A DNA stretch of 64,000 nucleotides, taken from positions 64,001 through 128,000 of IMG/VR virus record IMGVR_UViG_2645727757_000001; one strand, 5' to 3'. A program made the position numbers and the translations under genes. Positions 18,259 through 59,068 of this stretch are shown here, piece after piece. The stretch's first letter is position 1, and every line of letters starts with the position of its first letter. This DNA comes from a virus (taxonomy: Duplodnaviria; Caudoviricetes). The notes under the pieces are model-generated. The model did not search any database. It saw nothing but the letters and a program-made list of their open reading frames with translations, and had not been told where the DNA came from.

Positions 18259-20757
18259 TTATTTCAGTTCCTTGAATTCTTTTTCGAGTTCTTTTTCTTC
18301 TTTCATTATTTGCTCTATTTCATCATTAGATAGTGATTTTGTCTTAATATCACCTAATAATGATTCAAGCAAACCATTTATATATTCTTTAACAGCGTTA
18401 TTATTTTTAAAACTTTCTGTAAGATTATTTTTTCCTTGCCAAACACATTCAAATCCATCTAATATTAATGTATTTCCTTCTTCGTCTAATAATCTAAACC
18501 AAGCACCCTTTTTAGATATAAGATTTTCTCTTTCTAAGATATTAATTACTTCTAATTCTCTATCTATTCCTTCATTATATCTTGCAAAGTAATCACAAGT
18601 TGTAAATGGATTTCCTTTTGCAAATCTGTTTTTAATAGTTTTGCAATGTATTTTTACACCTTCTTCTAACGTTATTGGATCATTAGAGTCCTGTTTAATT
18701 CTTCTCATATGGATTCTTTGAGAAGCATAAAAGCCTAATGCTCTTCCCCCTGTTGTAGTTTCTGGATTTCCAAACATAACTCCAACTTTTTCTCTTATCT
18801 GATTTATGAATAATAATGTGCAATTATTTTTAGATGCAGAACCAGTTATTACTCTAAATAATCTTGATAAAAGTCTTGCAATTAATCCAACATTTTGTTT
18901 ATCCATTTCATCTGACATTTCTTTTGAAGGACATAAACCTGCACTTAATTTATTAACGTATAGCTCTTTATCTATACATCTAGAGATTACTCTCATTGGT
19001 AGCTCGTCCTAAAAGCTACTTCATCGGTTGGTCATTTCCAACCTAGCTTAGACTATATCATTCACCTATAAAGGCATTGCCCCGTTTTCGTGGAAGTTTT
19101 TATTGCCATATCATTAGACTTAGGCTCACTTCTAGTCGTTGAACCTCTCCAATATATTTCTATACTGGCTTGGTAACTGATTGTCCTTTAAGGAGTTCCC
19201 AGTTTTTACGGAGTTTTACTTCGACTACAGGATTTATTCATAAAATACTCTTTGAATTTATCTTTTTTCCTATTAAGATATATACTAGAACCATCATATA
19301 AGTAATCATATATTTTTTTTATTGAATTATGACCTCCATATGAAAGTATTTTTATATTCTTTGAGTTTATTAATTTTGTTTTATTTAAAGAACAGTTGTT
19401 AATAAGTTCTTCTTGGATGGATTCTAGTAATATTTTATTACCAGCTATAGAAAATATACATGCATATGATTTATAAATACCATATTTTCTTTTTATAACT
19501 CTTTCTGAAAAACTTATGCTTCCATCGCCATCAAAATAACCTCTTATAAAATGTCTTTTTAAGTCATTATTTATATTTGGGAATTTAACATTTTTAGTCT
19601 TATTTTCAGTAAAACCAAATTTTTTTAAATCCATTGTTAATTTCCTTGAATATAGATTTAATGTAGCTATATCATACGCTTCTTCTTTGATAGGCGCATT
19701 GCTATTTAAAAATTTTTTAAAATAGTGCAATATATCAATATCTCTTTTATTTATAGAGATTCTTGTTATTCTATCTCTTGAATTGCATCCATCTGCAAGT
19801 AAAAATCCTAGAAGATATGCTTTTATTTCTGTATCTATTTTTTCAAAGAAATTTTCATTTAAACTATATTTTCTATATTCATTAAGATTTCTTTTTTTAA
19901 CACCATATCGCTTTAATATATCATAAAACATTAGCTCTTTAATGTTTAAATATCTTGATATTTTAGTTCCACCTATATTTGTATTTGTATAAAATTTTAT
20001 AGCTAACTTTTCTTGGGATTTAGTACACTTCCAATTATTATTTCTTTCTTTTAAATAATTATTAACTATAGCTCCAATTATAGGTTCGCTTTTTAGAACT
20101 ATCTCTGATATTTCTTTATGCGTTTTACCTCTACAATATAGTACAACTACTCTTTTTTTAAATTCAAAACTATAATTTGATAAATTCGGTTTCCATGTAG
20201 GCATTGAATATCACCTCTATATTATAATATCGGATTAATATTATAATATAGTAATCACATATAACGCTAGTATATTATGAAAAAAGTTTTTGTTTAATCG
20301 AATTTATTACCATCATATCAAATTTACCAGAATCAACTAAAGCTCTTAATACATCAAATCCTTGCTCTGCTGGAATATTTGCTTGATCCCAATAAGCTAT
20401 ACATGATATATCAACACCAAGGCTTTCTAAGTATTCTGGATCAACGGAAGATTCAGTTTCATACCATCCTACCATAAATGTTCTTCCTTCTTCTTTAGCC
20501 TTTTGTTGATTCTTTTTTATAATCTCAATAGCCATAGAAGTTTTTCCACTACTTTCTGGACCAAATAATTCTATTATTTTTCCTTCCGCTACACCTCCGT
20601 ATAGCATTAAGTCAAATTCATAAGAAGGAGAACTTAACCTTTTAACTGTCATTTTATCTTTTATATCACCCATAAACGATACTGTATTGGCTCCAAATCT
20701 TTTATTTATATTGGCCATAACAGTATTTAAATTTACATTTCCTTTACTAGCACTCAT
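18259..20757 (-). CDS. recA: RecA recombinase, two exons (20757-20297 and 18943-18259; 381 aa spliced)
   Basis: Exon 1: IIELFGPESSGKTS; exon 2: FINQIREKVGVMFGNPETTTGGRALGFYAS; spliced junction reads VINSI-AGL in frame. Confidence 0.92.
18944..20296 (-). ncRNA. Group I intron in recA
   Basis: 5' exon ends in U and intron ends in G; internal guide CCUGUAGUCGAA (19231-19220) pairs with 5' exon UUCGAU|UA (U-G at the splice site) and with 3' exon UGCAGG; R GUUCAACGACUA, S AUGAUAUAGUCU. Confidence 0.92.
19206..20204 (-). CDS. Intron-encoded LAGLIDADG homing endonuclease with N-terminal HTH
   Basis: AYLLGFLLADGC and FIRGYFDGDGSI motifs; YLNRK C-terminus. Confidence 0.9.
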   Translation of the reverse strand: MPTWKPNLSNYSFEFKKRVVVLYCRGKTHKEISEIVLKSEPIIGAIVNNYLKERNNNWKCTKSQEKLAIKFYTNTNIGGTKISRYLNIKELMFYDILKRYGVKKRNLNEYRKYSLNENFFEKIDTEIKAYLLGFLLADGCNSRDRITRISINKRDIDILHYFKKFLNSNAPIKEEAYDIATLNLYSRKLTMDLKKFGFTENKTKNVKFPNINNDLKRHFIRGYFDGDGSISFSERVIKRKYGIYKSYACIFSIAGNKILLESIQEELINNCSLNKTKLINSKNIKILSYGGHNSIKKIYDYLYDGSSIYLNRKKDKFKEYFMNKSCSRSKTP

Positions 20758-20769
20758 ATATAAATACCT

Positions 20770-21081
20770 CTATACTTTTAATACCCTTTTTTTAAGGTCA
20801 TTTAAAGATGATAGTAATGTATCTTTAGCACCTTTAATTTCAGTATCTTTTAATGTGTTGGCTAATATAATCATATCATCTATAATTTTTTCAAGGTCTA
20901 TGATATTGCAATCATATAAAAATTCTGATTGTTCCTTGCTTAATTTCAAAGATAAAGCTACATCAGTAGTGATTTGCTTTTTTATATCTTCACAACCTTC
21001 TAGTTCTAAAGCTCTATAATAATATAATATTGAAGTTAAGAGAGCATTTTTAGCTCCCTTAACCTTATTATCATTTATCAA
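20770..21081 (-). CDS. Hypothetical protein
   Basis: 103 aa, overlaps the ssb stop. Confidence 0.6.
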   Translation of the reverse strand: MINDNKVKGAKNALLTSILYYYRALELEGCEDIKKQITTDVALSLKLSKEQSEFLYDCNIIDLEKIIDDMIILANTLKDTEIKGAKDTLLSSLNDLKKRVLKV

Positions 21082-21551
21082 AATGGCATATCTCCTGCAT
21101 CATAATTATCATAATAATCATCTGGAGGCATATCTCCTCCATTATTATAATTATTGTTGTTATTATAATTATTGTTATTGTTATTATTGTTATTATTTGA
21201 ACCAGAATCGCTTAAAGTAAATGAAACTTGTTCTACATTCAAGTAAGAACCAAATGTTTTATTACCGAAATCATCAGTTTTTTCGTATGATCTATAAGAT
21301 GCAAGTACTTTAATAGGTTTTCCCTTAGAGAAATATGAAGCAATAAAATCAGCAGATTTTCCATAAGCTATTAAATTTATAAAATCAGCATCTTGTGCTC
21401 CATTTTGTTTTTGCTTTGTTGTTAAATTTCTTGCTACCGCTATAGTAATTGATACTTTAGAGAAAGCATTTTCTCCTGTACCTACAACCGATTTGTTTGG
21501 ATCTTTTACAAGTCTACCCTCAAAAGAACAAAAATTATTAATATTTAACAT
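21078..21551 (-). CDS. ssb: Single-stranded DNA-binding protein
   Basis: GRLVKDP, IAVAR, ADFINLIAYGKSA, KGK; Asn-rich linker; acidic DMPF tail. Confidence 0.92.
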   Translation of the reverse strand: MLNINNFCSFEGRLVKDPNKSVVGTGENAFSKVSITIAVARNLTTKQKQNGAQDADFINLIAYGKSADFIASYFSKGKPIKVLASYRSYEKTDDFGNKTFGSYLNVEQVSFTLSDSGSNNNNNNNNNNYNNNNNYNNGGDMPPDDYYDNYDAGDMPF

Positions 21552-21848: not shown

Positions 21849-24800
21849 TTAATCTAATGTGAAATCAAAATTATTGCTTACTTTTGGAGCTTCTTTAATT
21901 TCGATATTGTTGTTATATTTTTTAGTAGGTTCTTTAATGTCAGATACTTTTTTGGAAGTATCAACTGAAATATTTTTGAAAATATTGTTATATTTTCCTG
22001 TGAAGGTTAAAACAGAACCCTCCAAGAACTGATTTTTAAACTTATGAAATGCTTTTGAGAATAAATTAACTCTAAATAATGTTCCATTTTTATCTTTTAA
22101 TATAGCAGCTAAAAATTGTTTGGAATTTTTAGTGTATTTAATTTCTGAACTTATTACTATTCCTGATGTAGTTACCTTGCTATTCATTTTACAAGCACTT
22201 AAATCTGTATATGGTAATCCATCCGCAGGATTGGAAGAAATAAAATCTCCTAAATAATCAAATTCATATTTAAACTTATCTATATCACTATAGGAAGCAA
22301 CATTTAGTAGTTCTTTGCCTTTATTTTTCTTGCTTTTAATATACTCATTGTACAATTCATGTCTGTTGCTGTTTATTTCATCGAAGCAACCAGATAATAT
22401 TAAGCTAACTTCAACTTTCATATCTACGGGGCATTTTTTATTGCCACTGGACGTATAATTATCGGCAAACAGATTAATATTTTCCTTTGAGTGCATTTCA
22501 TCGTAAAATTCTTTGAAGGAATTAAATTTACCAACCTTTTTTCTTATATTTAAAATATAGTTTATTGCACTTAATCCAACGTTTTTAATGGCAATAAATC
22601 CATATCTTATTTCATTTTCTTTATTTGAAGAGAATCCAGCTATGCTATGATTTATTGAAGGAGGAAGTACATCAACACCTCTTCTTCTACATTGTTGCAA
22701 TGTTGCTGATATTTTTTCACTATCATCTAAGTTCTTTAGACAACCTAAAGCCCATTCTACAGGGTGATGGAAACTTAAATATGCAGTTTTATATCCTACA
22801 AAGCCATAGGCAACACTATGAGATTTATTAAAAGCATATTTACAGAACTCTTCCATAATATCGAAAATATCTCTAGCTAATTTTTCATCAAAGTTATTGT
22901 TAATAGCTCCTATACACCAGTCACTATCTTCTTCACTTAAACCAATAACTTTTTTATCTTTTCCAATTCCTTCATATATAGATTTTTTACCATATATGAA
23001 TTCATTACGAATTTCGGGAATCATAGAAAGTTTCTTTTTTGCAAGAGGTTTTCTTATTCTGCTATCGGCTCCGCCTAAGTTATATCCTGCCATTACTTGT
23101 CCTAATCTCATACAATCTTCTTGGTAGAGAATTGTACCGTATGTTTCTTCTAAAATCCAGTCAATTCGTTCATCTAATTCTGGTACATCACCAGTTCTTT
23201 TTCTTTCAGCATACATATCCGCCATTGAAAGCCCAGTTTGCTTATTTTTAGCTAACGGTCCAGGGCGATTTGAGGCGTTAACAGCAACTAAATCCTCAAA
23301 TTTATTTACATTATAATCATATAATAATTTTATAGCTCCTTGTCCTGCCATCTGGAAGATATTAGTTGTGTCTCCATTACGAAGCATTTTATAAATCTTC
23401 TTATCACTTACATCTTCACTATCATACCAATCCCAATCTAAACCTGCTAAATCCATAGCATCTTTAATCTGATCTAATGTTCTAAGACCTAAAGCATCTA
23501 TTTTAAGTAACTTATAAAAGTCAACATCTGCCATATCAGCTTGTATTATAGGAAGTACTGCTGTATTGGAACCTGTTTCGATAGGTAAGTGATTTCTTAA
23601 TGGTTCATTTGAAATGATAACTCCACCAGCATGAATACCTTTTGAAGCAATAGCTCCGCCTAAATTTTCTAAAGCTAAACCTACCTCTGGATATTTTTCT
23701 ATCATAATTTCAAGTTTTTCTACAGTAGAAACTATGTTATCAAATTCAGCTTCGGTAAGCTCATAGTCATTAGGATTCTTATAAGCATTTAATAATGTTT
23801 TATAAGATAAAGGTTCTTCCCCTATAAAAGAAGGAGCATATTTCGTTAAGTCATTTACTTCATCAAATTTATCTGGAGCAAGAACTGACATAACTGCTTT
23901 TATTAAATTTTTAAATTTATATTCAGTAAAAGTTATAATTTGAGAAACATATTCTATACCGTATTTCTCTTTAAGATATAATATAGCTTTAGCTCTATCT
24001 CTCTTGGAAATATCGGTGTCTATATCAGGAGCTTCCATTCTTAATGGATTTAAAAATCTCTCAAATAATAAATTATATTTTATCGGGTCTATTTTAGTTA
24101 TATCTAATACATAAGCTACAATTGATCCAGCTCCACTCATTTATACCCTGGTTTTCACCATATTTACATTCTATAAAAGAATAGGGATTAGACTATATCT
24201 TCATCCTATTTCTAGGAGCAACGCACTTCAAAGGGTAGCATCTCCCTCTTACATAATAGTCGTTTGACTTTTTTATTTGTTGTAAGTTTTATAATCTATA
24301 ATTTTTTTCACAGATTTCCATGTCATATTATATTTTTTACTTAAAGATGATATAGAGTAACCTTCTTTATGTCTTTGTCTTATATCTTCTGCATCTTGTA
24401 ATGTCAATTTTCTTTGTGTCTTCTGCATTTTTATAGGCTCTTTATCTTTATCAAAATTATAATATCTACAATTTAGAATATCTGCTATAGTTGTTTTAGA
24501 AACATTATATTTGATAGCTAGTTTTCTTTGGGAAGTATTTGAAGTTAAATATTCTTTTCTTATTTCATCAGCTTGTAAATCAGTTAAACTTCTATTTTTA
24601 GGTTTTTTTGCTTTATTTAAACCTGTGGCAAAAGCGTGTAACTGATTTTCACCGTTTGTACACCATTCTAAATTAGAAACATTATTATTACTCTTATCTC
24701 CATCCTTATGATTTACTTGTGGTAAATTATTAGGATTTTCTATATAAGTTATTGCTACTAATCTATGAATTCTGTACGATTTTTTATTCAACTTTATTCC

Positions 24801-26232
24801 TTCATAACCTTTTCTATTTATAGATGTTTTTAAATACTTATTTGTAATTGTTGAATAAATTCTACCGTCTTCATCTATTAAATATTTTTCTAAACCTTCT
24901 ATATTTATAGTTTTCACAATAATCACCTCTGATTATTAATTATACAACAAATAAACTTAGCACAGGATAGGCTTGTCGTATAGATTTAGCTTTCCCTGTT
25001 AGCATAACTTCTATTACTCATTTCCTAGTAATCCTAACCGTAAGTTATACACCCTCTTGCAATAAAGGTTCACGTTGTTTTACTTAGTAAATTACTCTAC
25101 TAAGGAGGCCATATTAACCTCTTCCTGGACCTAAAGGTATACCAGCTTTTCTACAATATAAAAACCAATCCCAAAGTATTAAGAAATATCCAGCATATCC
25201 TTTAGAACAAATAACATCAAGTTCATAATTAAGTCTTTTAAGTCTTACTTCATAATCTTTTTGCTTTTTGTTTATATACTTTTTATTTAAACAATCAAAG
25301 GCTAGTTCTCTTAGATAAGTAGATTCATCATAGCCTTTAGGACATTTAAACTTAGGATATAACCCATTACTACTCTTTGGTTTTGGATCAATTTTGCATT
25401 GTTCTGAAATCTTTACTGTATTATCTATAGCTGATAATGGTATATCGTATTCTATACAATAATCTTTTAATTCATCATAGCTCATAAGATAATTTTCAGT
25501 ATCCATTCCATTTGGAAAGCCATCCATCTTTTTTAATATATTATGATATATTTTATCTTCCTTTTTTAAATAATGTGTATCTGTAGTAATAACCAGTTCA
25601 ATACCAGTTTCTTTTGATATTTGTACTAAGTCATTATTTACAAGTAGCTGTTGTGGAATTATATGAGGTTGAACCTCTAAATAAAAAGAATCAAAAATAG
25701 AGTTATAATAAATAGCTTTTTCTTTAGCTTTTTGATATTCTCCATTTAAGATTAATTTAGGAATTAAGCCACCTATACATCCACTCAAAGCTATTATTCC
25801 ATTTCCGTATTTCTCTAAAACACTATCTTCTGTTTGTGATTTACCTTCCGTTTTTGCGGATTTACTTTTCCTTTTTATTTTATGTGTTCCTGCATCGGAA
25901 GCTATATTATAAAGATTCTCTAATCCATCATTATTCTTGGCCAATAAAACCATGTGAAAAGAATCTCTATTTCCTTCTTCTCTTTCTTCACAATGATAAA
26001 TTTCGCATCCAATTATAGCATTAGTATACGTTGATACTTCACTATAAAATTTAACTAATGAATAAATATTTCCATGATCCGTTAATGCTATTCCAACAAT
26101 ATCATCTTTTGAATCATCTTCATTAGATTCTTTTGCTACTTTCGCATATTGATATGGTGCTACTATAGAATCTTTAATTGAATAAACAGTATGATTATGC
26201 AAATACGCAATTTTACCTAATGTTCTCACCAC
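21849..26232 (-). CDS. dnaE: DNA polymerase III alpha subunit, two exons (26232-25117 and 24137-21849; 1134 aa spliced)
   Basis: PHP motifs HNHT.YS..D, ALTDHGN, TTDTHY; junction GPGRG|SGAGSIVAY; FERFLNP.R...PDIDTD, HAGG, KIDALGL, RPGP, YQE, YAFNKSH. Confidence 0.95.
24138..25116 (-). ncRNA. Group I intron in dnaE
   Basis: P1 GAGGU|UA..UGGCCUC with U-G at the splice site; terminal G at 24138; P3 CAACGU/GCGUUG; R GUCAAACGACUA; S AAGAUAUAGUCU; removal restores GRGS in frame. Confidence 0.92.
24273..24926 (-). CDS. Intron-encoded HNH homing endonuclease with C-terminal HTH repeats
   Basis: HRLVA..YI.NP.NLPQVNHKDGDK.NN.V.NLEWCT..EN..HA; flanked by a UUUAUUUGUUG/CAACAAAUAAA stem. Confidence 0.9.
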   Translation of the reverse strand: MIIVKTINIEGLEKYLIDEDGRIYSTITNKYLKTSINRKGYEGIKLNKKSYRIHRLVAITYIENPNNLPQVNHKDGDKSNNNVSNLEWCTNGENQLHAFATGLNKAKKPKNRSLTDLQADEIRKEYLTSNTSQRKLAIKYNVSKTTIADILNCRYYNFDKDKEPIKMQKTQRKLTLQDAEDIRQRHKEGYSISSLSKKYNMTWKSVKKIIDYKTYNK

Positions 26233-26251: not shown

Positions 26252-26701
26252 TTAATAATGTTTAGATAATTCTTTAAGTTTTTCTAATTGAGTGTCGCTA
26301 ATATACATATATTGTTGTCTATTCTTATAGATATGATTAACATATTGTTTTAGTGTTCTAGCTCCTTTGTCTTTATTGCATCTTTTGCAGCAACATTTTA
26401 AATTGCTAGGTAAATCAGAACCTCCATTTTTGTAATAGCTCTTAGGAATTACATGGTCTATAGAGGCTTTACTTGACTTTTGATTGCAAATATAACAAAT
26501 GTTATTACTTTTTTTTATGATGGAATCTTTTATATTTCTTCTATCTTTTTTACTTAAAGCTAGACATAATTTATTTTTTCCTATCCAATAAGCACATTTT
26601 CTATCTATTAGTTTATTTGCTCTAATTAAACTTGTTTTACTTAAAAATTTACCCTCATTATCAAAAACTGAAATTATTTTTTTATTATCTTCATTATACA
26701 A
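26252..26701 (-). CDS. HNH endonuclease with RRXRR/PLMP-like N-terminus
   Basis: CYIC..SIDHVIPKS..GG.D...NL..CC.RCN..KG; N-terminus VFDNEGKFLSKTSLIRANKLIDRKCA. Confidence 0.75.
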   Translation of the reverse strand: MYNEDNKKIISVFDNEGKFLSKTSLIRANKLIDRKCAYWIGKNKLCLALSKKDRRNIKDSIIKKSNNICYICNQKSSKASIDHVIPKSYYKNGGSDLPSNLKCCCKRCNKDKGARTLKQYVNHIYKNRQQYMYISDTQLEKLKELSKHY

Positions 26702-46417: not shown

Positions 46418-46439
46418 GTTGTTCCTCCTAATTATTACT

Positions 46440-46635
46440 AATATTATTTCACTATCTTTTTACAAATTTAGTGAAATATATGTATATATCTATAATTATC
46501 TACAAATATAATACTATATTTATATATAATTATTCAACTATAAATATATAAAAATAAAAATATATGTAACTATATACATATATAAATATATAAAATTATA
46601 TACTTATATATGTATAGAATTATATATATTGAAAT
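46440..46635. repeat. AT-rich repeat tract, candidate parC centromere/promoter
   Basis: Nearly all A/T; tatatgta x3 and tataaatatataaaa x2; directly upstream of parM. Confidence 0.45.
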
Positions 46636-46706
46636 AAAAAGGGATAGGTATATATAAACCTATCCCCTAAAACCTCAATGAAGTGGATTTCTCCACCTCT
46701 TAAATA

Positions 46707-47498
46707 TTATTCAAGTTCTGTATCACCATTAGTACTTAAATCATCAACAAGCTCTGATTCTTCTTGTTCCTCTTGTTCTTCGAATTTATAATTAGAATTC
46801 ATTTCTTCATTTAATTTAGTAGCTTCTTCAAAATTTCCCTCTTCAAGCATTTTTTGAATTTTATCAGTAATATCTTCTGAATTTTCTTCTATTCCTTTTT
46901 CAGAAGTTATTTCTTTATTAGTTTCATCAGTTTCTTTTACTACATTAGCATTAACTAATTGATCTGCATTTATCTCTTCACTTTCATCAAGTAATACAGC
47001 ATCAGTAACTACAATAGCATCAGATTTCTTGTTCTTAATGTTTTCTGGAGTTGCATCAGCAAATTCTATATCAGATACAGAAAGTCTAGTATTTTCATAT
47101 CTAATTGGTTGTTCAAATGAACATTTAATGTTACGTGGTTTTCCGTCAATTTCTATTTGAAGTACTTTTTCTATTGTAACTTTACTTTCAGTTTTGTATT
47201 TTTCGATATTTCCATGAACAACTATTCTTCTTGAAATAAATTTATCTTCTTCATCATAAATATTAAAGTTCTTATCAATAATCTTAGCTAAGTTACCATA
47301 TGCACAGCAGTTCATAAAGTCAGAATCTTTGACTTTCTTAGTTTCACCATTTTCATCTACTACAGTTCTTAAGTAATTTCTATCAGTTGCAATAGTAAAG
47401 TTAATAACGTATGATGGATTTTTACCTTCCTTATTAGCGTTTAAATCTCTTAATTTCCCACATTTTACTGTTCTTGCGAATGCTGAAGTTTTTAACAT
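46707..47498 (-). CDS. SSB-like OB-fold protein with long acidic tail
   Basis: FTIATDR...DFMNCCAYG..A; paralogue of 51679..52206. Confidence 0.75.
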   Translation of the reverse strand: MLKTSAFARTVKCGKLRDLNANKEGKNPSYVINFTIATDRNYLRTVVDENGETKKVKDSDFMNCCAYGNLAKIIDKNFNIYDEEDKFISRRIVVHGNIEKYKTESKVTIEKVLQIEIDGKPRNIKCSFEQPIRYENTRLSVSDIEFADATPENIKNKKSDAIVVTDAVLLDESEEINADQLVNANVVKETDETNKEITSEKGIEENSEDITDKIQKMLEEGNFEEATKLNEEMNSNYKFEEQEEQEESELVDDLSTNGDTELE

Positions 47499-50355: not shown

Positions 50356-50793
50356 CTATAGTATATTTAAATTAACACAATAGGCTACATACTTTCCCAT
50401 AGCTTTAGATATAGAATCACTAACCTTTTTCCTTGGCTTATCATCTTCTATATCCTCTATTAGTTCATCATCCAATTCATCTTCTGATAAATAAGCAGAA
50501 CCATCTACTTTTAAAGTATTAGTGTCTTCATTATAACTACCATAAAAGAATACCACATCATTATCATATTCACTAGAGTAGTTATACCTATTGTCTATAG
50601 AGATAGCAATATGATCTTTAGCTATACAGTCAATACTATCACTAATCTCTACTCTACCTATTTTAGATATATTAATAGACTTAATTATATCTACTTTAAA
50701 AGAAATACATACTCCATCATTATTGTCATTTACCTGTATATTCTTTACTGAATTTACTCTACCATATAAAGCAATATTACTCATTAAATTCAC
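50356..50793 (-). CDS. Divergent SSB-like OB-fold protein
   Basis: IALYGRV...ISFKV...SDSIDCIA...A....V.F.G; acidic tail. Confidence 0.5.
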   Translation of the reverse strand: MNLMSNIALYGRVNSVKNIQVNDNNDGVCISFKVDIIKSINISKIGRVEISDSIDCIAKDHIAISIDNRYNYSSEYDNDVVFFYGSYNEDTNTLKVDGSAYLSEDELDDELIEDIEDDKPRKKVSDSISKAMGKYVAYCVNLNIL

Positions 50794-50859
50794 TCCAATC
50801 TTTTTATTGTTGTTACAATCCTATATTTTTTAGACTTATATAGTAATAATCTTATGAAA

Positions 50860-51672
50860 TTTTGGAAATACTAAAGGTATTCCATGAACACCTAGTTATA
50901 CCAGTTACATAACAGCTAAAATAAAGTCAATTTGCCATACCGAGGTGCTGTTTTATGGTATTTGCCCTAGAGGTCACATTAAGATGGTGCGTTTCCCTAG
51001 AAAAATAACCAGTATCCTTTCATTTTATAACAAAAACGCTTGAAAATGGCTCAACCACAAGGGATTATCGGCAATTTTAAGCGTAATTGGTTAAAAATAA
51101 AGTGAAATGGTTATTACTAGTGTAAGCCCATCTAAACATAAGATTACTGGTAAAATACCGTAGGTATCGGTCAAGCCATAGGTTATTAAGGCATAATGAC
51201 ACTTTAACCAGTAATCGGCTATCTAAGGCAACCTAAACTACAATAATACCAATAGGGAATGGTAACATTATAGTTTATCTGTTAGTAAAAAGTATTTTCC
51301 CTTAATCGCTACATCCGAAAATTTATTCTTTCGGGATATGCCCTTGGTCTTAACTTAACCTCGTCGTCACCGCTGCGCTCTGCGCTTCGGGCGGGGCCCT
51401 GCACTCCGCTCCGACTCGGTACGTACGACCTTCGGTCATACCCTACAGAATAAATTTCTGCGTAGCGATAAGGGAATGCTGTTAACTAAAAGCTATCGGG
51501 AAATCTCGTTGAATTGGATTACCTATAGCTTCAAGATAGCAGTTATGTATATGGAGATATTACTTCCGTAATACCGAAGGAACTTGGCACAATGCATCCA
51601 AGTTTCAAAAAAGGAGTGTGGTAAGTTATAATGCCACTTACCAAGGCTATGTAGGTGGGTTCTTCACCCACA
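50860..51672 (-). ncRNA. Large (~800 nt) highly base-paired non-coding element (ncRNA or folded ssDNA signal)
   Basis: No credible ORF; nested long-range stems 51537-49/50906-18, 51462-76/51297-312, 51207-16/51142-51, 51266-77/51234-45; G-U pairs and a GGAA loop work only on the minus strand. Confidence 0.6.
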
Positions 51673-51678
51673 GGAATA

Positions 51679-52206
51679 TTAATATGGAACATTACCTTCA
51701 TCAAATTCTTCATCAATCTCTTCTTCTGTAACTTCTTCAACTATAGCTGTAGATGATGAAGAGGCAATGTTAGTTGGATTAGCTGATAGGAAGTTTATAT
51801 TATCTACAACTAGTTTGCAACCATATTGCTTAATAGAAGTAGTAAGTGTAACTCTAGTTCTAACACCGTTGACAGTAATTATATCAGAAACTTCAACAGG
51901 TTTGTCTATAGTGAATGTTTCAAGAGTACCTTCGATATATAAAGGACGGCTTATAAATCTTCCAAATTCATCATAGATGTTGCAGTACTTCTCAATAGTT
52001 TCAGCAGTCTTTCCATAAGCAACACAAAGAAGGAAGTCAGATTGTTTAACCTTTTTAGTTTCACCATTTTCATCAACAGTAGTTCTTTGGAATTTTCTAT
52101 CTGTAGCTATAGTGAATGTTATACTCTTAGTAGTCTTATCCTCTTTTTCGTTAACCTTTAAATTATTACATCTTACAGTTCTACCATTTAATATTGTTCT
52201 TATCAT
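51679..52206 (-). CDS. SSB-like OB-fold protein
   Basis: LNGRTV, FTIATDR, DFLLCVAYGKTAE, IEGTLET; acidic tail ending NVPY. Confidence 0.8.
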   Translation of the reverse strand: MIRTILNGRTVRCNNLKVNEKEDKTTKSITFTIATDRKFQRTTVDENGETKKVKQSDFLLCVAYGKTAETIEKYCNIYDEFGRFISRPLYIEGTLETFTIDKPVEVSDIITVNGVRTRVTLTTSIKQYGCKLVVDNINFLSANPTNIASSSSTAIVEEVTEEEIDEEFDEGNVPY

Positions 52207-52317
52207 AAAAAATCACTCCTAAAATTTATTATTTATTATTTATTGAATCGGATAAACCTGCTATGTAATCTTTGGTACAACTTATGGAGATACCTGTTAC
52301 AGCAAATCCATTACATC

Positions 52318-52354
52318 AAAAATGAAGAGGCGGGATAATCCACAACCTCTTCAT
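52318..52354 (-). terminator. Rho-independent terminator of an ORF-less minus-strand unit
   Basis: ATGAAGAGG...CCTCTTCAT followed by TTTT on the minus strand. Confidence 0.7.
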
Positions 52355-52472
52355 CTTCAAAGTGTATAAAATTATGATTTGAATAGGAACCTTGAATCCT
52401 GTAGGAAATGTACCGAGTTGATTCAGCACATCAACCACAGGAATCAAAGAATCCATAAGAACAGAACTCGAA

Positions 52473-52580
52473 GGCTCAAAAGCTCTAAGCTCTGTTCTCT
52501 AGGCTCTGGCTCTATCAATAGAACCATAGTCACGGTACTCTGGCTCTGGTGCTCTGTTTCTGGCTCTAGGCTCTGGCTCT
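52473..52580. repeat. (G)GCTCT short-repeat tract
   Basis: Nine GCTCT copies; 17-nt direct repeat ctctaggctctggctct at 52497 and 52564. Confidence 0.85.
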
Positions 52581-52638
52581 TGACGTACCGAAGGTATAAA
52601 AAATGACCTCTATAAAAATATAGAAGTCATTATTATAA

Positions 52639-54779: not shown

Positions 54780-57700
54780 TTAATCTTCAAATTCAAATTC
54801 AAATTCAAATTCTTCACTTGATAAATCATCAAGAACTTCTATTCCATCTAGTTCATCAAAGTTATCATTTAGGCTATCAATTACTTCACAGTCTATAACT
54901 TCTAGTGAATCATCAAATGATTCTTCTACTACTGAACTTGTATCAAAAGTGAATTCAGCATTATCCTCTTCAATTACTTCAAATCCTTCTGTTATTTCTT
55001 CTTCGTAATTTAATAGGTCTATTCCGTCATATTCTACAACGTCACTCATTTTAACTTTATCTTCAACTTTAATAGTTTCTTCATCTGAAATTTCTCTTAC
55101 AGCTTTAACTCTTATATCTATATTGTTTCTGTAAGCTAATTCTTCCTTTTCATCAGTCCATTCGATAACGTTGTTATTTATTTGATAATCATTAGGAATA
55201 TAATGCATATCACTTTCGCTAAAGTCAGCTTTAAATACTAAACCGTTTGCAGAATTTACATCGTTTAATCCGTAGCTACCAACCATCATTAATGGTTTCT
55301 TATCTACTACTACCCAAAGACCATCATTACATCTTTGTACTGTAAATTCTCCTTTAGCTTGTATAGTTCTTATAGATTCTGATACAGATTCTCCATCTGT
55401 TGAGTATACTAATGTCATAAATTCATTAGTATTTGTTGCTTTCGCAACAACTCTATTTTGCGCTGCCGCGCAAATTCTAGGAACTCTAATAATCTTAGAA
55501 TCTTCAACTTCAATTACATCATATTTTCCAGGTCTTAAATCAGTAGTTTCTACGAATTTACCATTTATGAATAATGCACCAACATTATTTATAACAACTG
55601 ATTTTACTTCTTCATCTGTCTTTGGTAATCTGTATAAATCACTACCTTTAGTACATTCTCTTAATAAATCTAATAGTTCATTTCTGAATACATTCCATAC
55701 AAATCCTCTAGATTTTGTATTGTCATTATTAGGTCTTATATAACATACTTCATAAGCTGTAGCTACTACTGTATTTAATTTACTAATACTACCATTAACG
55801 TATGATAATAATGCATTTCTGTATTCATTGTAGATAGATTCTATCTTTTCCCAAGATTCTTTTCTTACTTTTTCTACTTCTTCTTGTGTCATTTCATCAT
55901 CTATTGTATATAGTGAACGAACATCTATTATACGTTCTCTGCAAAGCTTTTCCATTTTAGCTATTCTTGGTTTTATAGAAGCGTGTTCATCTTTATCAAC
56001 AACTTTTAATAATTTATATACTAAAGTTGTATCAGTAGCTACCTTTTTAGTTAGTATTTCTCTAATTCTAGCTTTACTATATTTGTATAAGTTTGTCATT
56101 GGAGAATCAGATTCTTTTAATATTCTTTCATCATCTATATATACATCACCACATTTAGCTATGAAATATTCTGAATTTTTCTTGAATTGTTTCTTTGCAA
56201 GTAACCATTCTGGTCTTACTTTCATATTAGCATATGCAGGAATAACTACTTCTTCACCAGTCTTTTGTTTATCTATATCCCATCCTTGGATAAATCTTAA
56301 TTTCTTTAATACATCAGATACTCTGTGTTTTCTTCCTGTCTTGTCTATATAAGTTGTACATCCACTATTTAATAAATCAGTAAATGTTGTAGCAACGTCA
56401 GTAATAAATCCTAATTGTGATCCTTCCATAGAATCTCTGTAGAAGCTCCTTAAAATATCCTCATTAATATCACTAACAGGAGCTTTGTGTTTAAGGTTAT
56501 CATTTATAACATAGTCTTTATTATTAAAGAATTTAATAACTCTTTCATCTCTAATACAGTTAGCATGGTCACCATCAACGTCTGCTCCACCAAGAGAAGG
56601 TAATATATCATCGAATGGATTTAAGACCATTAAGTCTTCTAAATACCAAAGACGGTCATTTTTGCAAGTAGTTATCTTTCTAGCTTCACTCTTATCTATT
56701 AAAGGATTTCTAGTTAAAACAACTTCTCCTTCTATATTGTTAAGATAGAACTCTCCAGATTGTAAACAACCAAATCTATCAGTAAGATATAATGGGTCAA
56801 CTACTAGGAAATTATAATCTCCTTCAACTTGGATTCTACCAAATGCAACTTCATATAGGTAATTACCTACAAGTTTTCTTAATTTAGAATTGATATATTC
56901 ATCTTTTAGTATTTCATCTGACGCTTCTAATGCCTCTGTTAATACACTTACTAGATGTTTTTCTTCATAATCAAGGTTGTATTCACTATTAGTATCTTTA
57001 ACTAAACCTAAGAAAGTTTTAGCAGCTACAGGATTAGATAATATATTATCTTTAACTTTACTAAATTCAGTTTCAGCAAGTTCAATTAAGTTCTTAGAAT
57101 CTATGTCACTAGCACCTATTGCTTGATAATTTAGATAAGATTTTCCTGTCTTTTTGTGGTTTAGTGATACTACAGAGAATTCTAGTTTAGAACGTCCAGT
57201 TTCATCTCTAAAAGCATCACTATCGTACTTTCTTACGCTTTCTGGCATAAGAATATCGTAATCAGCATATTCTGGAACTCTCTTGTTAAAGTCGTCCATT
57301 ACAACTATACCTTTATCTCCACCGTGTCTAAATTGAATTATTCTTTGTACCTTTTTGAAAATCTTTCTTAATCTTGAATTACCATCTATAGCTATCTTTA
57401 AAGTTGCTAAATTTAAATCTTTATATGCTTCTAAGAAGTAATCTAATTCAGCTTTACTCATTAATCCTAAATCCTCTGTAGCTTTAGCTAAAAATTCAAC
57501 TGTAGCAGATGCTTGACCATCACAAGCTGTATTACAGATATAGTTATCTCTAATGAATTTAGGGATTAATTTTTCACATAAATAGCCATCTGGTAACATG
57601 AATCTATTTAATTTAGATTTTAAATCATAATTTCCAGTTTCAGTTTTCTTTAATATAACATCACCAAATGGTTTTATTATTTCCTCTGGAATTATGCAAG

Positions 57701-58964
57701 TAGATTCAGCTATTTCAACGTTATCTTTAATAACTTTAATCATAGGTTTTAGTGAAGTTGATTTTGAGTTAGTAGCAGCTAGAGCTTTACGTCCATCATA
57801 TTTACTAACATTACATTTACCATTTTCATCTAATATAGCACTAGGATCACCGCATAATAGTCTATTAGCAACAGTTGTCCATTTTTCTGATGAATAAGTT
57901 ATTCTACTTTGTCTAGCTTGTGAGAAACTTCTAGAACAAGGATTAAAATGTCTATTAAGTTCTTCATCGTAATATCCTTCCATTATAATGAATTTTACTT
58001 TTTCTAAAAGTATTTCTTTTGATTCTTCAAAGCAAGTCTTTCTTTCAGCTTTAGATAAATCCTTATATACGTATCCTCTTGATTTAATATTATCCATTAC
58101 CATTCTATTAGTTACACTTCCATTGAAAGTTGAGAAGTTGTATAGTTGATATTGAACTGTTCCATCTTCTAAAGTAACCTTAGAACCAAATTCTCTAGCT
58201 AATCTTGATTCAGATATTTTTTCTTTACATTTAGCTTCTTTAGGTAATACATATTTTCCGTTTTTGAATACTATATCATCAATAGTAAACATCTTAGTGT
58301 GATATTGGTTTTTCTTAATCCTAGGTCTGTTTATATAGTATTCAGCTAATGATTTAATGCTATCTAATTCGATGTAGTTCATTAATCTTACAGCTTCGCT
58401 ATTGAATATGAATATATCGTTATTTGCCCCGTATAGGGAATCTTCTGTGTCTACTTCGACTGATTCTCTTATGAACTTTTTATCGAATGTTACACCATCA
58501 ACGTATCTTGCCATTTTCTTAAAGTTTATGGCAGTAACAACTGAACAACCTTCTACATATTCACTATCTTCATTTGGTACAACTGTTCCAAAGATTTTCT
58601 TTATTAATTTATAATCATCAGTATTAGTTATTTTGATTATATTACCTTCGTTCTTTAATATTAAGAAACCTTCAACTGTTCCTTCGATTATTCCTCTCTT
58701 GTATTTTCTAACTAGTGAAGGTCTTTTTCCAGAGTACTTTTTAGTAACTAAACCGCCTTGTGGTAATACAGTTATACCGTTGCTTATTTTATAGTTAACT
58801 GTATTTTGAGAAGAGCTTAAAAGAGATTTGTTCAATAACATACTATTGAATCTTTCCATTAAAGCATTAATCATTGTTTCCTTAGTATTAGTAGCATCCA
58901 TACCTGTTAATGAACATAATTCTTCCTTGTTTAATCTCTTTAATAAATTTTCTAATTTTTTCAT
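54780..58964 (-). CDS. YonO-like / cellular-RdRP-like single-subunit two-barrel RNA polymerase
   Basis: CDGQ, QFRHGGDKG, LTRNP, LGGADVDGD (DxDGD catalytic loop), DIDKQKTG; start set to ATG 58964 after an AAGGAG RBS. Confidence 0.85.
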   Translation of the reverse strand: MKKLENLLKRLNKEELCSLTGMDATNTKETMINALMERFNSMLLNKSLLSSSQNTVNYKISNGITVLPQGGLVTKKYSGKRPSLVRKYKRGIIEGTVEGFLILKNEGNIIKITNTDDYKLIKKIFGTVVPNEDSEYVEGCSVVTAINFKKMARYVDGVTFDKKFIRESVEVDTEDSLYGANNDIFIFNSEAVRLMNYIELDSIKSLAEYYINRPRIKKNQYHTKMFTIDDIVFKNGKYVLPKEAKCKEKISESRLAREFGSKVTLEDGTVQYQLYNFSTFNGSVTNRMVMDNIKSRGYVYKDLSKAERKTCFEESKEILLEKVKFIIMEGYYDEELNRHFNPCSRSFSQARQSRITYSSEKWTTVANRLLCGDPSAILDENGKCNVSKYDGRKALAATNSKSTSLKPMIKVIKDNVEIAESTCIIPEEIIKPFGDVILKKTETGNYDLKSKLNRFMLPDGYLCEKLIPKFIRDNYICNTACDGQASATVEFLAKATEDLGLMSKAELDYFLEAYKDLNLATLKIAIDGNSRLRKIFKKVQRIIQFRHGGDKGIVVMDDFNKRVPEYADYDILMPESVRKYDSDAFRDETGRSKLEFSVVSLNHKKTGKSYLNYQAIGASDIDSKNLIELAETEFSKVKDNILSNPVAAKTFLGLVKDTNSEYNLDYEEKHLVSVLTEALEASDEILKDEYINSKLRKLVGNYLYEVAFGRIQVEGDYNFLVVDPLYLTDRFGCLQSGEFYLNNIEGEVVLTRNPLIDKSEARKITTCKNDRLWYLEDLMVLNPFDDILPSLGGADVDGDHANCIRDERVIKFFNNKDYVINDNLKHKAPVSDINEDILRSFYRDSMEGSQLGFITDVATTFTDLLNSGCTTYIDKTGRKHRVSDVLKKLRFIQGWDIDKQKTGEEVVIPAYANMKVRPEWLLAKKQFKKNSEYFIAKCGDVYIDDERILKESDSPMTNLYKYSKARIREILTKKVATDTTLVYKLLKVVDKDEHASIKPRIAKMEKLCRERIIDVRSLYTIDDEMTQEEVEKVRKESWEKIESIYNEYRNALLSYVNGSISKLNTVVATAYEVCYIRPNNDNTKSRGFVWNVFRNELLDLLRECTKGSDLYRLPKTDEEVKSVVINNVGALFINGKFVETTDLRPGKYDVIEVEDSKIIRVPRICAAAQNRVVAKATNTNEFMTLVYSTDGESVSESIRTIQAKGEFTVQRCNDGLWVVVDKKPLMMVGSYGLNDVNSANGLVFKADFSESDMHYIPNDYQINNNVIEWTDEKEELAYRNNIDIRVKAVREISDEETIKVEDKVKMSDVVEYDGIDLLNYEEEITEGFEVIEEDNAEFTFDTSSVVEESFDDSLEVIDCEVIDSLNDNFDELDGIEVLDDLSSEEFEFEFEFED

Positions 58965-59068
58965 AATTTTAACACTCCTTTTATTCAAATCATAATTTTT
59001 ATAAAGCACTTAGTAATAAAGCAATAAAAAAGAGGAAGCCAATTTTTTTGACTTCCACTTAGTAAAAC

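Follow-up and report, generated by a model that had tools for sequence, protein, structure and literature searches.

The 64-kb window analysed here (bases 64001-128000 of the 185,364-bp virus record IMGVR_UViG_2645727757_000001, whose GC content is 27.6%) contains an 885-nt noncoding spacer that lies next to a gene for a single-stranded DNA-binding (SSB) protein and folds strongly. Coordinates without a prefix refer to this window, and those with the prefix G000:C1 refer to the whole record. The record is equal in length to NZ_CP006906.1, the circular plasmid pCBJ of Clostridium baratii str. Sullivan, and all 885 bases of the element are 100% identical to that plasmid in a blastn search against plasmids. 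On its gene content the replicon is a phage-plasmid, since capsid and tail-sheath genes occur together with a Rep_3 gene on pCBJ. The spacer is a genuine noncoding element that is conserved, folds strongly and belongs to a type absent from Rfam. Its parts and the two adjoining genes are given below from 5' to 3' on the minus strand, with z-scores taken against shuffled sequences, P as pairing probability and MFE as minimum free energy.

51679-52206, minus strand: upstream gene, 175-aa SSB-family protein (PF00436, 4.7e-6, 27.0 bits against a cut-off of 26)
50794-51678, minus strand: whole spacer without a long open reading frame (ORF), from the SSB gene to the 145-aa gene (885 nt, GC 38%, fold z -8.58)
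51553-51678, minus strand: 5' segment of four short hairpins, including the GGAA-tetraloop hairpin 51556-51575 (z -2.9; hairpin P 0.99)
51479-51552, minus strand: one hairpin and the 5' arm (51537-51549) of a predicted outer stem (MFE fold)
51296-51478, minus strand: core hairpin of 183 nt, a 26-bp stalk (51450-51478/51296-51325) carrying a GC-rich rod (-80.6 kcal/mol, z -7.4)
51325-51450, minus strand: the GC-rich rod, with 7 helices comprising 38 pairs (a second copy outside the window has 87% identity)
51232-51295, minus strand: hairpin with a 12-bp stem (51266-51277/51234-51245; z -3.8 on the minus strand against -0.75 on the plus strand, P 0.98)
51142-51231, minus strand: hairpin domain of about 90 nt closed by a 10-bp stem (51207-51216/51142-51151; P 0.97, z -2.4)
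50975-51141, minus strand: long imperfect rod of 167 nt (z -4.5), within the block best conserved against the relative in sequencing run X9
50860-50974, minus strand: weakly structured 3' part with the outer-stem 3' arm 50906-50918 and a terminator-like hairpin 50875-50893 (z 0.2)
50356-50793, minus strand: downstream gene, 145-aa protein with weak likeness to the SSB N-terminus (BLASTP E 0.007)

An earlier note, made from the DNA letters, had described an ORF-free element of about 800 nt between two SSB-like genes. The spacer itself is borne out, as only short ORFs of 31-41 aa lie wholly within 50794-51678, and both flanking genes are on the minus strand. The flanks agree with that description in part: the upstream protein is SSB-family by Pfam, shares 40% identity over 163 aa with a paralogue at 46707-47498 and ends in an acidic tail, whereas the downstream protein is weakly alike and has no Pfam or PHROG match. 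The GC-rich core is also confirmed, with a GC content of 0.54-0.62 at 51300-51449, against 0.22-0.30 in the flanking genes, and a peak of 0.75 in 60-nt windows. Among the 21 gaps of at least 350 nt on the plasmid that lack an ORF of at least 80 aa, the element ranks fifth in length and shares the highest GC content (0.38). The GC-IGR method finds structured noncoding RNAs in AT-rich genomes by just these two features of a spacer, length and GC enrichment (PMC6429828).

Folding of 50800-51680 gives -265.6 kcal/mol on the minus strand (z -8.58) and -254.1 kcal/mol on the plus strand (z -7.46), and none of 20 dinucleotide shuffles of either strand folded as well. Because shuffling of the whole region disperses the GC-rich core and may inflate the z-score, sub-segments were also scored separately (minus strand, 100 shuffles per piece). 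The core hairpin 51296-51478 reached -7.4 and the rod 50975-51141 reached -4.5, while three other pieces ranged from -2.4 to -3.8 and 50794-50974 was unstructured, with a z-score of about 0. Across 170 background windows taken from the genome's first 20 kb, the z-score averages -0.58 (standard deviation, sd, 1.13) and is below -4 in one. The plasmid is generally hairpin-rich, since several AT-rich palindromic spacers outrank the element in a scan of MFE regressed on GC content; the element is distinct by its length and GC content. The strongest hairpin-forming spacer of the plasmid is G000:C1:162555-163350 (-5.7 sd at GC 0.25), and further strong ones lie at G000:C1 134641-134910 and 140581-141120. 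The spacer 46418-46706, between the ParM gene and the gene for a 263-aa SSB protein, has the second most negative GC-adjusted folding energy (-5.0 sd) and is a candidate partition site or palindrome. The other spacer with a GC content of 0.38, L012:17755-18284 (G000 155254-155783), follows directly after the tail-sheath gene, has a fold z-score of -2.86 and may hold a short or interrupted gene.

All five stems named in the earlier note occur in the MFE fold with mean pairing probabilities of 0.85-0.99; apart from the GGAA-tetraloop hairpin, they comprise 12 pairs (51537-51549/50906-50918), 15 pairs (51462-51476/51297-51312), 10 pairs (51207-51216/51142-51151) and 12 pairs (51266-51277/51234-51245). 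The large multibranched structure proposed on the basis of these stems finds some agreement in the MFE fold, where the outer stem closes most of the hairpins, but this closure is a thermodynamic prediction only, of the long-range sort that is unreliable. The structured part, from 51678 to 50975, is best read as about five predicted long hairpins arranged in series over roughly 700 nt, rather than as one ornate multibranch. Within the GC-rich rod, the internal loops are purine-rich (GAA/AAG, two GU/UAA and a tandem GA), and the apex consists of two hairpins. The least constrained part is the 5' segment 51553-51678, in which the relative from run X9 has indels at 51592-51661.

A BLAST search of the element against its own genome identified a single other copy of the rod, at G000:C1:130457-130572, on the plus strand and thus inverted, 15 kb away (87% identity, E 2.9e-35); nothing of the element beyond the rod aligns elsewhere in the genome. 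The second copy (copy 2) sits on an AT-rich stalk of 62 bp that is unrelated to the 26-bp stalk of the copy in the spacer (copy 1) and is nearly all Watson-Crick (one G-U in 62 pairs), making a hairpin of 288 nt in total. When the 38 rod pairs are examined in a two-row alignment, 4 show double changes that preserve pairing and 2 show one-sided changes that give G-U, while unpaired cells number 4 out of 76. Slid alignments gave 0-1 double changes, and 24 of 500 shuffles were as good, a control that is weak with two rows. RNAalifold independently finds the same rod, with 33 pairs, 4 compensatory changes and none broken. Thirty-four nucleotides of the apex are identical between the copies, and the first C(GNA)G loop changes from GAA in copy 1 to GCA in copy 2 and is still GNA. 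A covariance model built from the two copies matches just these training copies in 190,366 bases, and matched 0 of 3 other records.

Copy 2 has the Rep_3 gene and the repeats downstream of that gene on one side and four clustered helix-turn-helix (HTH) genes on the other, and the cumulative GC skew reaches its minimum about 2 kb away. The Rep_3 initiator (PF01051, 7.5e-20) has iteron families around it. In this origin region, G000:C1:129829-134074 (L003 5830-10075), about 15 TTTCCCAAAAYGCTC-type repeats and a stretch of 2-5% GC lie upstream of the Rep_3 gene. Downstream are five GTGGTATCTAATCAACC repeats (a 17-mer) and several TAATGTAATC repeats, followed by four tandem HTH paralogues of about 340 aa. 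Two related Clostridium Rep_3 plasmids lack a GC-rich island in the spacer downstream of rep.

Relatives of the locus were looked for in sequencing runs and in public sequence collections. Part of an 8.8-kb stretch is contained in 18 of 22 listed runs, from 10 studies. Four of the 22 were compared over 50700-51760, with differences counted among those listed (52 more are unlisted). In runs X1-X3, short pieces that are nearly identical are present at low depth and cover parts of the element only. Run X9 contains a relative of about 90% identity at high depth, of which one contig spans 50700-51357 with 63 substitutions and no gaps, so that 658 nt, 564 of them noncoding, are kept without indels. 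Beyond this contig, the rod apex (51358-51420) is replaced by other GC-rich sequence, and another contig is homologous to copy 2. The listed differences amount to 24 of 172 nt at 50794-50965 (14.0%), 9 of 207 nt at 50966-51172 (4.3%) and 7 of 94 nt in the adjoining coding flank (7.4%). When the 33 listed substitutions within the element are placed on the MFE fold, 16 are unpaired, 7 are one-sided and keep the pair, 5 break a pair of which both sides are visible, and 5 have their pair partner among the unlisted differences. Because the contig lacks indels and the block 50966-51172 is more conserved than the coding flank, the comparison supports constraint on this sequence, not the detailed fold. 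By eye, the visible letters of the X9 apex can be aligned by hand in a way that preserves the tandem G.A steps and alters the helix pairs. Scans for exact rod patterns in public viral, metagenome and genome contig collections gave no match, nor did a 26-mer of the best-conserved block in the genome contig collection. A blastn search of the element gave no phage match and, among plasmids, only pCBJ itself. Protein-guided searches for the locus in viral and metagenome contigs, using the SSB protein, the 145-aa protein, the polymerase encoded upstream and a polymerase alignment, gave no confirmed locus; MT835469.1, which carries a distant SSB homologue, has no comparable spacer.

Both copies of the rod hairpin fold better on the sense strand (-80.6 versus -72.6 kcal/mol in copy 1 and -95.8 versus -83.7 kcal/mol in copy 2). 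This advantage is 8-12 kcal/mol with RNA parameters and 5 kcal/mol, in the same direction, with DNA parameters. Like single-strand initiation (ssi) sites, the rod hairpins are thus stable hairpins on one specific strand. Over 50975-51678, the minus-strand fold has 18 G-U pairs and 8 U.U single mismatches flanked by pairs, while the plus-strand fold has 12 G-U pairs, no U.U and 3 A.A mismatches; the suggestion that several stems need G-U pairs available only on the minus strand is therefore only moderately true. Three of the four sub-domains fold better on the minus strand and one on the plus strand.

None of the known RNA classes examined matches the element. At the gathering score, Rfam 15 gave no matches in the window and none in the plasmid's other 126,366 bases. 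In E-value mode (E up to 10) over 50700-51800 it gave seven chance-level hits, the best of which scored 22.2 bits, where the gathering score is 70; none of the seven is from GOLLD, ROOL, OLE, HEARO or raiA. These families, all named in the earlier note, are therefore excluded. A group I intron is not supported, since the flanks are not split exons: the SSB protein aligns with its paralogue over residues 1-156, and the downstream ORF has its own N-terminus. The group I model RF00028 gave no match, a result of little weight, since Rfam is also silent at the endonuclease-bearing interruptions of the recA and Pol III alpha genes of this plasmid; its silence thus leaves room for a divergent ribozyme, but nothing else at the element points to an intron. 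Group II introns are not supported either: neither RF00029 nor any other group II model gave a hit at E up to 10, and RVT_1 is absent from the entire plasmid. Retron RNAs and TnpB-IscB guide RNAs were set aside because PF00078 and PF07282, both detected in control genomes, are absent from the record. ARAGORN identified neither transfer RNA nor transfer-messenger RNA genes across the 185-kb record. A coding rod was rejected: its open frame is an artefact of GC content, and the amino acid is altered at nearly every difference between copies 1 and 2. A hammerhead or K-turn apex, assessed by eye, was rejected since the conserved core letters are not found in copy 1.

The genes around the element are those of a phage and a plasmid combined. 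Pfam searches identified a capsid protein, tail sheath, tail fibres and an amidase on the phage side, and the Rep_3 initiator and a ParM-type segregation protein on the plasmid side. The replication set includes a DnaG-type primase, a DnaB-like helicase, a split Pol III alpha, a split recA and UvrD, and three proteins match the SSB family (46707-47498, 51679-52206 and 21078-21551). PLSDB classes the replicon as non-mobilizable, and its gene table, which carries no RNA genes at all, has no feature in the spacer. The next spacer upstream, 52207-52638, has an HTH/DUF7487 gene on one side and the SSB gene on the other and is 432 nt long, with a GC content of 0.37 and a z-score of -8.03 (none of 100 shuffles as good). 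Four GCTCTGGCTCT-type repeats occupy 52482-52580 and a terminator hairpin of 13 bp lies at 52602-52631; the spacer could be a second, phage-type origin or an operator array.

Located 3 kb upstream of the element, a 1409-aa protein (54780-59009) matches PF05183 (RdRP, eukaryote-type; 5.2e-22) and has a visible DxDGD-type motif in its translation, which together suggest a single-subunit RNA polymerase. Its relatives in the protein database and public assemblies have identities of 90%, 82% and 50%, and the nearest protein from a cultured phage is ORF099 of Bacillus phage 0305phi8-36 (25.5% identity). The recA gene is split into an N-terminal part (20275-20757) and a C-terminal part (18259-18996) with a LAGLIDADG ORF between them (19206-20204), an arrangement that resembles an intron carrying a homing endonuclease. 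The gene for Pol III alpha (DnaE-type) is similarly split into a PHP and N-terminal part (25114-26232) and the rest (21849-24140), with an HNH ORF between them (24273-24926) and a second HNH ORF nearby (26252-26701). A 2320-aa ORF (L014:2391-9353) has Intein_splicing and LAGLIDADG domains, indicating an intein. An ArdC-like gene is present elsewhere in the window. The BoNT/F7 cluster is reported to lie on pCBJ (PMC8879937). Four Pfam scans of 102 ORFs, including all listed ORFs of at least 1000 aa and leaving three locus-straddling ORFs of at least 300 aa outside, revealed no neurotoxin family.

We favour a structured RNA over a folded single-stranded DNA replication signal as the explanation of this element, and tentatively, at somewhat below an even chance, regard the rod on its stalk as the working part of that RNA. 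The fold statistics, the one intragenomic paralogue with its 4 compensatory changes and the indel-free conservation in one relative make a new class of noncoding RNA possible, with thin comparative support, and it is in this form that the earlier suggestion of a large phage noncoding RNA persists. That the flanking OB-fold proteins or the RdRP-like polymerase use the element, as the earlier note proposed, is a hypothesis. The better folding of the sense strand in both copies, the larger numbers of G-U pairs and U.U mismatches on the minus strand, and the length and GC enrichment of the spacer also speak for an RNA. A noncoding RNA domain would be read, like the upstream SSB gene, off the minus strand; copy 1 has the orientation of all surrounding genes and should therefore be transcribed unless termination occurs upstream. 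The functional unit would be the GC-rich rod of about 125 nt, a helix with regularly spaced purine-rich loops, a variable apex and a fully double-stranded stalk. This stalk may be an RNase III-type processing stalk that frees a stable small rod RNA, and the periodic internal loops may be docking sites for protein. The stalks of the two copies are unrelated in sequence and both pair, as expected if the stalk need only be double-stranded. The same rod would be made from the second locus beside the Rep_3 origin, and since it is found there, we guess that it might link the phage replication/transcription module to plasmid maintenance. The transcription, processing, protein binding and biological role of the rod we only infer. 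A more ambitious version, which we consider unlikely as a whole, is that the rod is a new small RNA made from two loci (one in the lytic replication and transcription module beside the SSB and RdRP-like polymerase genes, the other at the Rep_3 origin), cut from its stalks and read by a plasmid-encoded protein at its periodic G.A-rich loops, that couples or switches plasmid-mode and phage-mode replication (as an origin primer, R-loop RNA or decoy), with the array of about 700 nt being a new class of large phage noncoding RNA.

Several observations weigh against an RNA. The strand asymmetry is small outside the rod, and one sub-domain prefers the plus strand. No convincing promoter was found in the element region, where promoter-like sites number 7 against 11.5 expected. 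Copy 2 runs counter to the genes on either side, and no promoter was scored on the strand of this copy; its best promoter (11 of 12 matches) has the -35 in the stalk and points away from the sense strand of the rod, and the near-perfect Watson-Crick pairing of that stalk looks more like a DNA palindrome. None of the 22 listed sequencing runs is on record as RNA. The comparative support comes from two genomes alone, and none of the 33 listed X9 substitutions is compensatory, while three of the five that break pairs do so at P of at least 0.76. In the GC-regressed scan the best window of the element ranks about 13th of 2058 (-3.1 sd), and other spacers fold more strongly.

The main rival is a folded single-stranded DNA replication signal, which the earlier note had offered as its other explanation and in which hairpins on the lagging-strand template would load primase or a primosome, like ssi sites. 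The proposal has gained, short of proof, from the position of copy 2 directly downstream of the Rep_3 gene, with iterons flanking it and the GC-skew minimum nearby, and from the first C(GNA)G loop that is still GNA there. The near-perfect palindrome of the copy 2 stalk and the same strand preference in folds with DNA parameters are also consistent with it, and the plasmid's own DnaG-type primase, DnaB-like helicase and at least three SSB-family proteins could act on such hairpins. Precedents are ssiA of pAMbeta1, downstream of ori (PMC5703833), and ssiA and ssiB of RSF1010, 40-nt sites that are inverted repeats within oriV (PMC8567376). Copy 1 lies 1 kb from the spacer full of GCTCTGGCTCT repeats beside an HTH gene, which could be a second origin; with an origin in that spacer, at 52.2-52.6 kb, the orientations imply that the better-folding strands of both copies would be on the lagging-strand template of diverging forks. 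However, a leftward fork from the Rep_3 origin region (132-134 kb) would put the favoured strand of copy 2 on the leading-strand template, and 17 kb separate copy 1 from that origin. At 183-288 nt within a 700-nt hairpin array, the elements are also far larger than the 40-nt RSF1010 sites (PMC8567376), and the two related Clostridium Rep_3 plasmids have no GC-rich island downstream of rep. We regard a DNA signal as somewhat unlikely.

Alternatively, the array could be a purely cis-acting block in an operon mRNA, in which stabilising, processing or terminator hairpins set the expression of the SSB gene relative to later genes and no product acts in trans. The orientation shared with the flanking genes, terminator-like hairpins at both ends (51605-51643, recognised by eye, and 50875-50893), an unstructured 3' region of 115-180 nt that could hold the next promoter, and the likewise strong structure of the neighbouring spacer 52207-52638 (z -8.0) are all consistent with this. 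Such functions, however, need far less than 700 nt of conserved indel-free hairpins, and a block of this kind leaves unexplained both the inverted second rod at the plasmid origin and the 87% rod identity against unrelated stalks; we consider it improbable. It is very doubtful that the element is a relic or selfish insertion, whether a mobile cluster high in GC or an intron in decay, which entered AT-rich palindromes on two occasions and does nothing for the plasmid. Selfish elements do abound on this plasmid, with recA and Pol III alpha split by homing-endonuclease ORFs and one intein, the base of the rod loosely resembles a group II domain V, and the 34-nt apex, identical in both copies yet different in copy 1 of the X9 relative, suggests recent gene conversion. 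Against an insertion are the complete flanking genes, which are not split exons, the lack of an Rfam intron match and of a reverse transcriptase or TnpB on the plasmid, the presence of just 2 copies in the 190,366 bases searched with the covariance model, and the empty exact-pattern scans of three public collections. The compensatory changes and the indel-free conservation point instead to selection on the fold.

Phage-plasmids face a choice between lytic growth and quiet replication as plasmids, and to our knowledge almost nothing is known about noncoding elements in this choice, in clostridia especially. A conserved module common to a lytic replication gene block and a Rep_3 origin would provide a concrete handle on it. 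Should the element act as an RNA, the few large structured RNAs known from phages would gain a new class; should it act as folded DNA, its size as an initiation signal would be unusual, in a Gram-positive replicon with its own primase, helicase, polymerase and SSB proteins. In either case the region is one left unannotated in the PLSDB gene table of the public record.

Frpo-type single-stranded DNA promoters are found on conjugative plasmids. The element is like them in having a hairpin of some 200-300 nt next to plasmid-borne ssb-type genes, and an ArdC-like gene is present elsewhere in the window. This candidate was rejected because neither stalk contains a -35/-10 pair; the replicon is, moreover, non-mobilizable according to PLSDB and carries phage structural genes. 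RNase III processing stalks are known around ribosomal RNAs and in phage T7 early RNAs. There, as in copy 1 versus copy 2, a conserved structured RNA is carried on a long duplex whose sequence varies freely while it stays paired; here, cleavage is hypothetical and the 62-bp AT-rich stalk of copy 2 could equally be a DNA palindrome.

GOLLD, ROOL and OLE are large ornate RNAs of bacteria and prophages (PMC12286853). The element resembles them in its size class (about 700-900 nt), the lack of a long ORF, GC enrichment within an AT-rich mobile element of Bacillota and a strong fold. It differs in having no covariance-model match even at E up to 10, in consisting of serial long hairpins where those RNAs have ornate multi-junction domains, and in being known from one plasmid family, with one module duplicated at a plasmid origin. 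Compared with the 40-nt RSF1010 ssi sites, its hairpins are four to seven times larger (PMC8567376), its copies are 15 kb apart rather than within one oriV, and the strand logic requires an assumed second origin. With ssi and primosome-assembly sites in general (PMC5703833, PMC8567376), the element shares the ability to form hairpins, a strand preference, one copy directly downstream of an initiator gene, two copies on opposite strands, and GNA-type loops closed by C-G.

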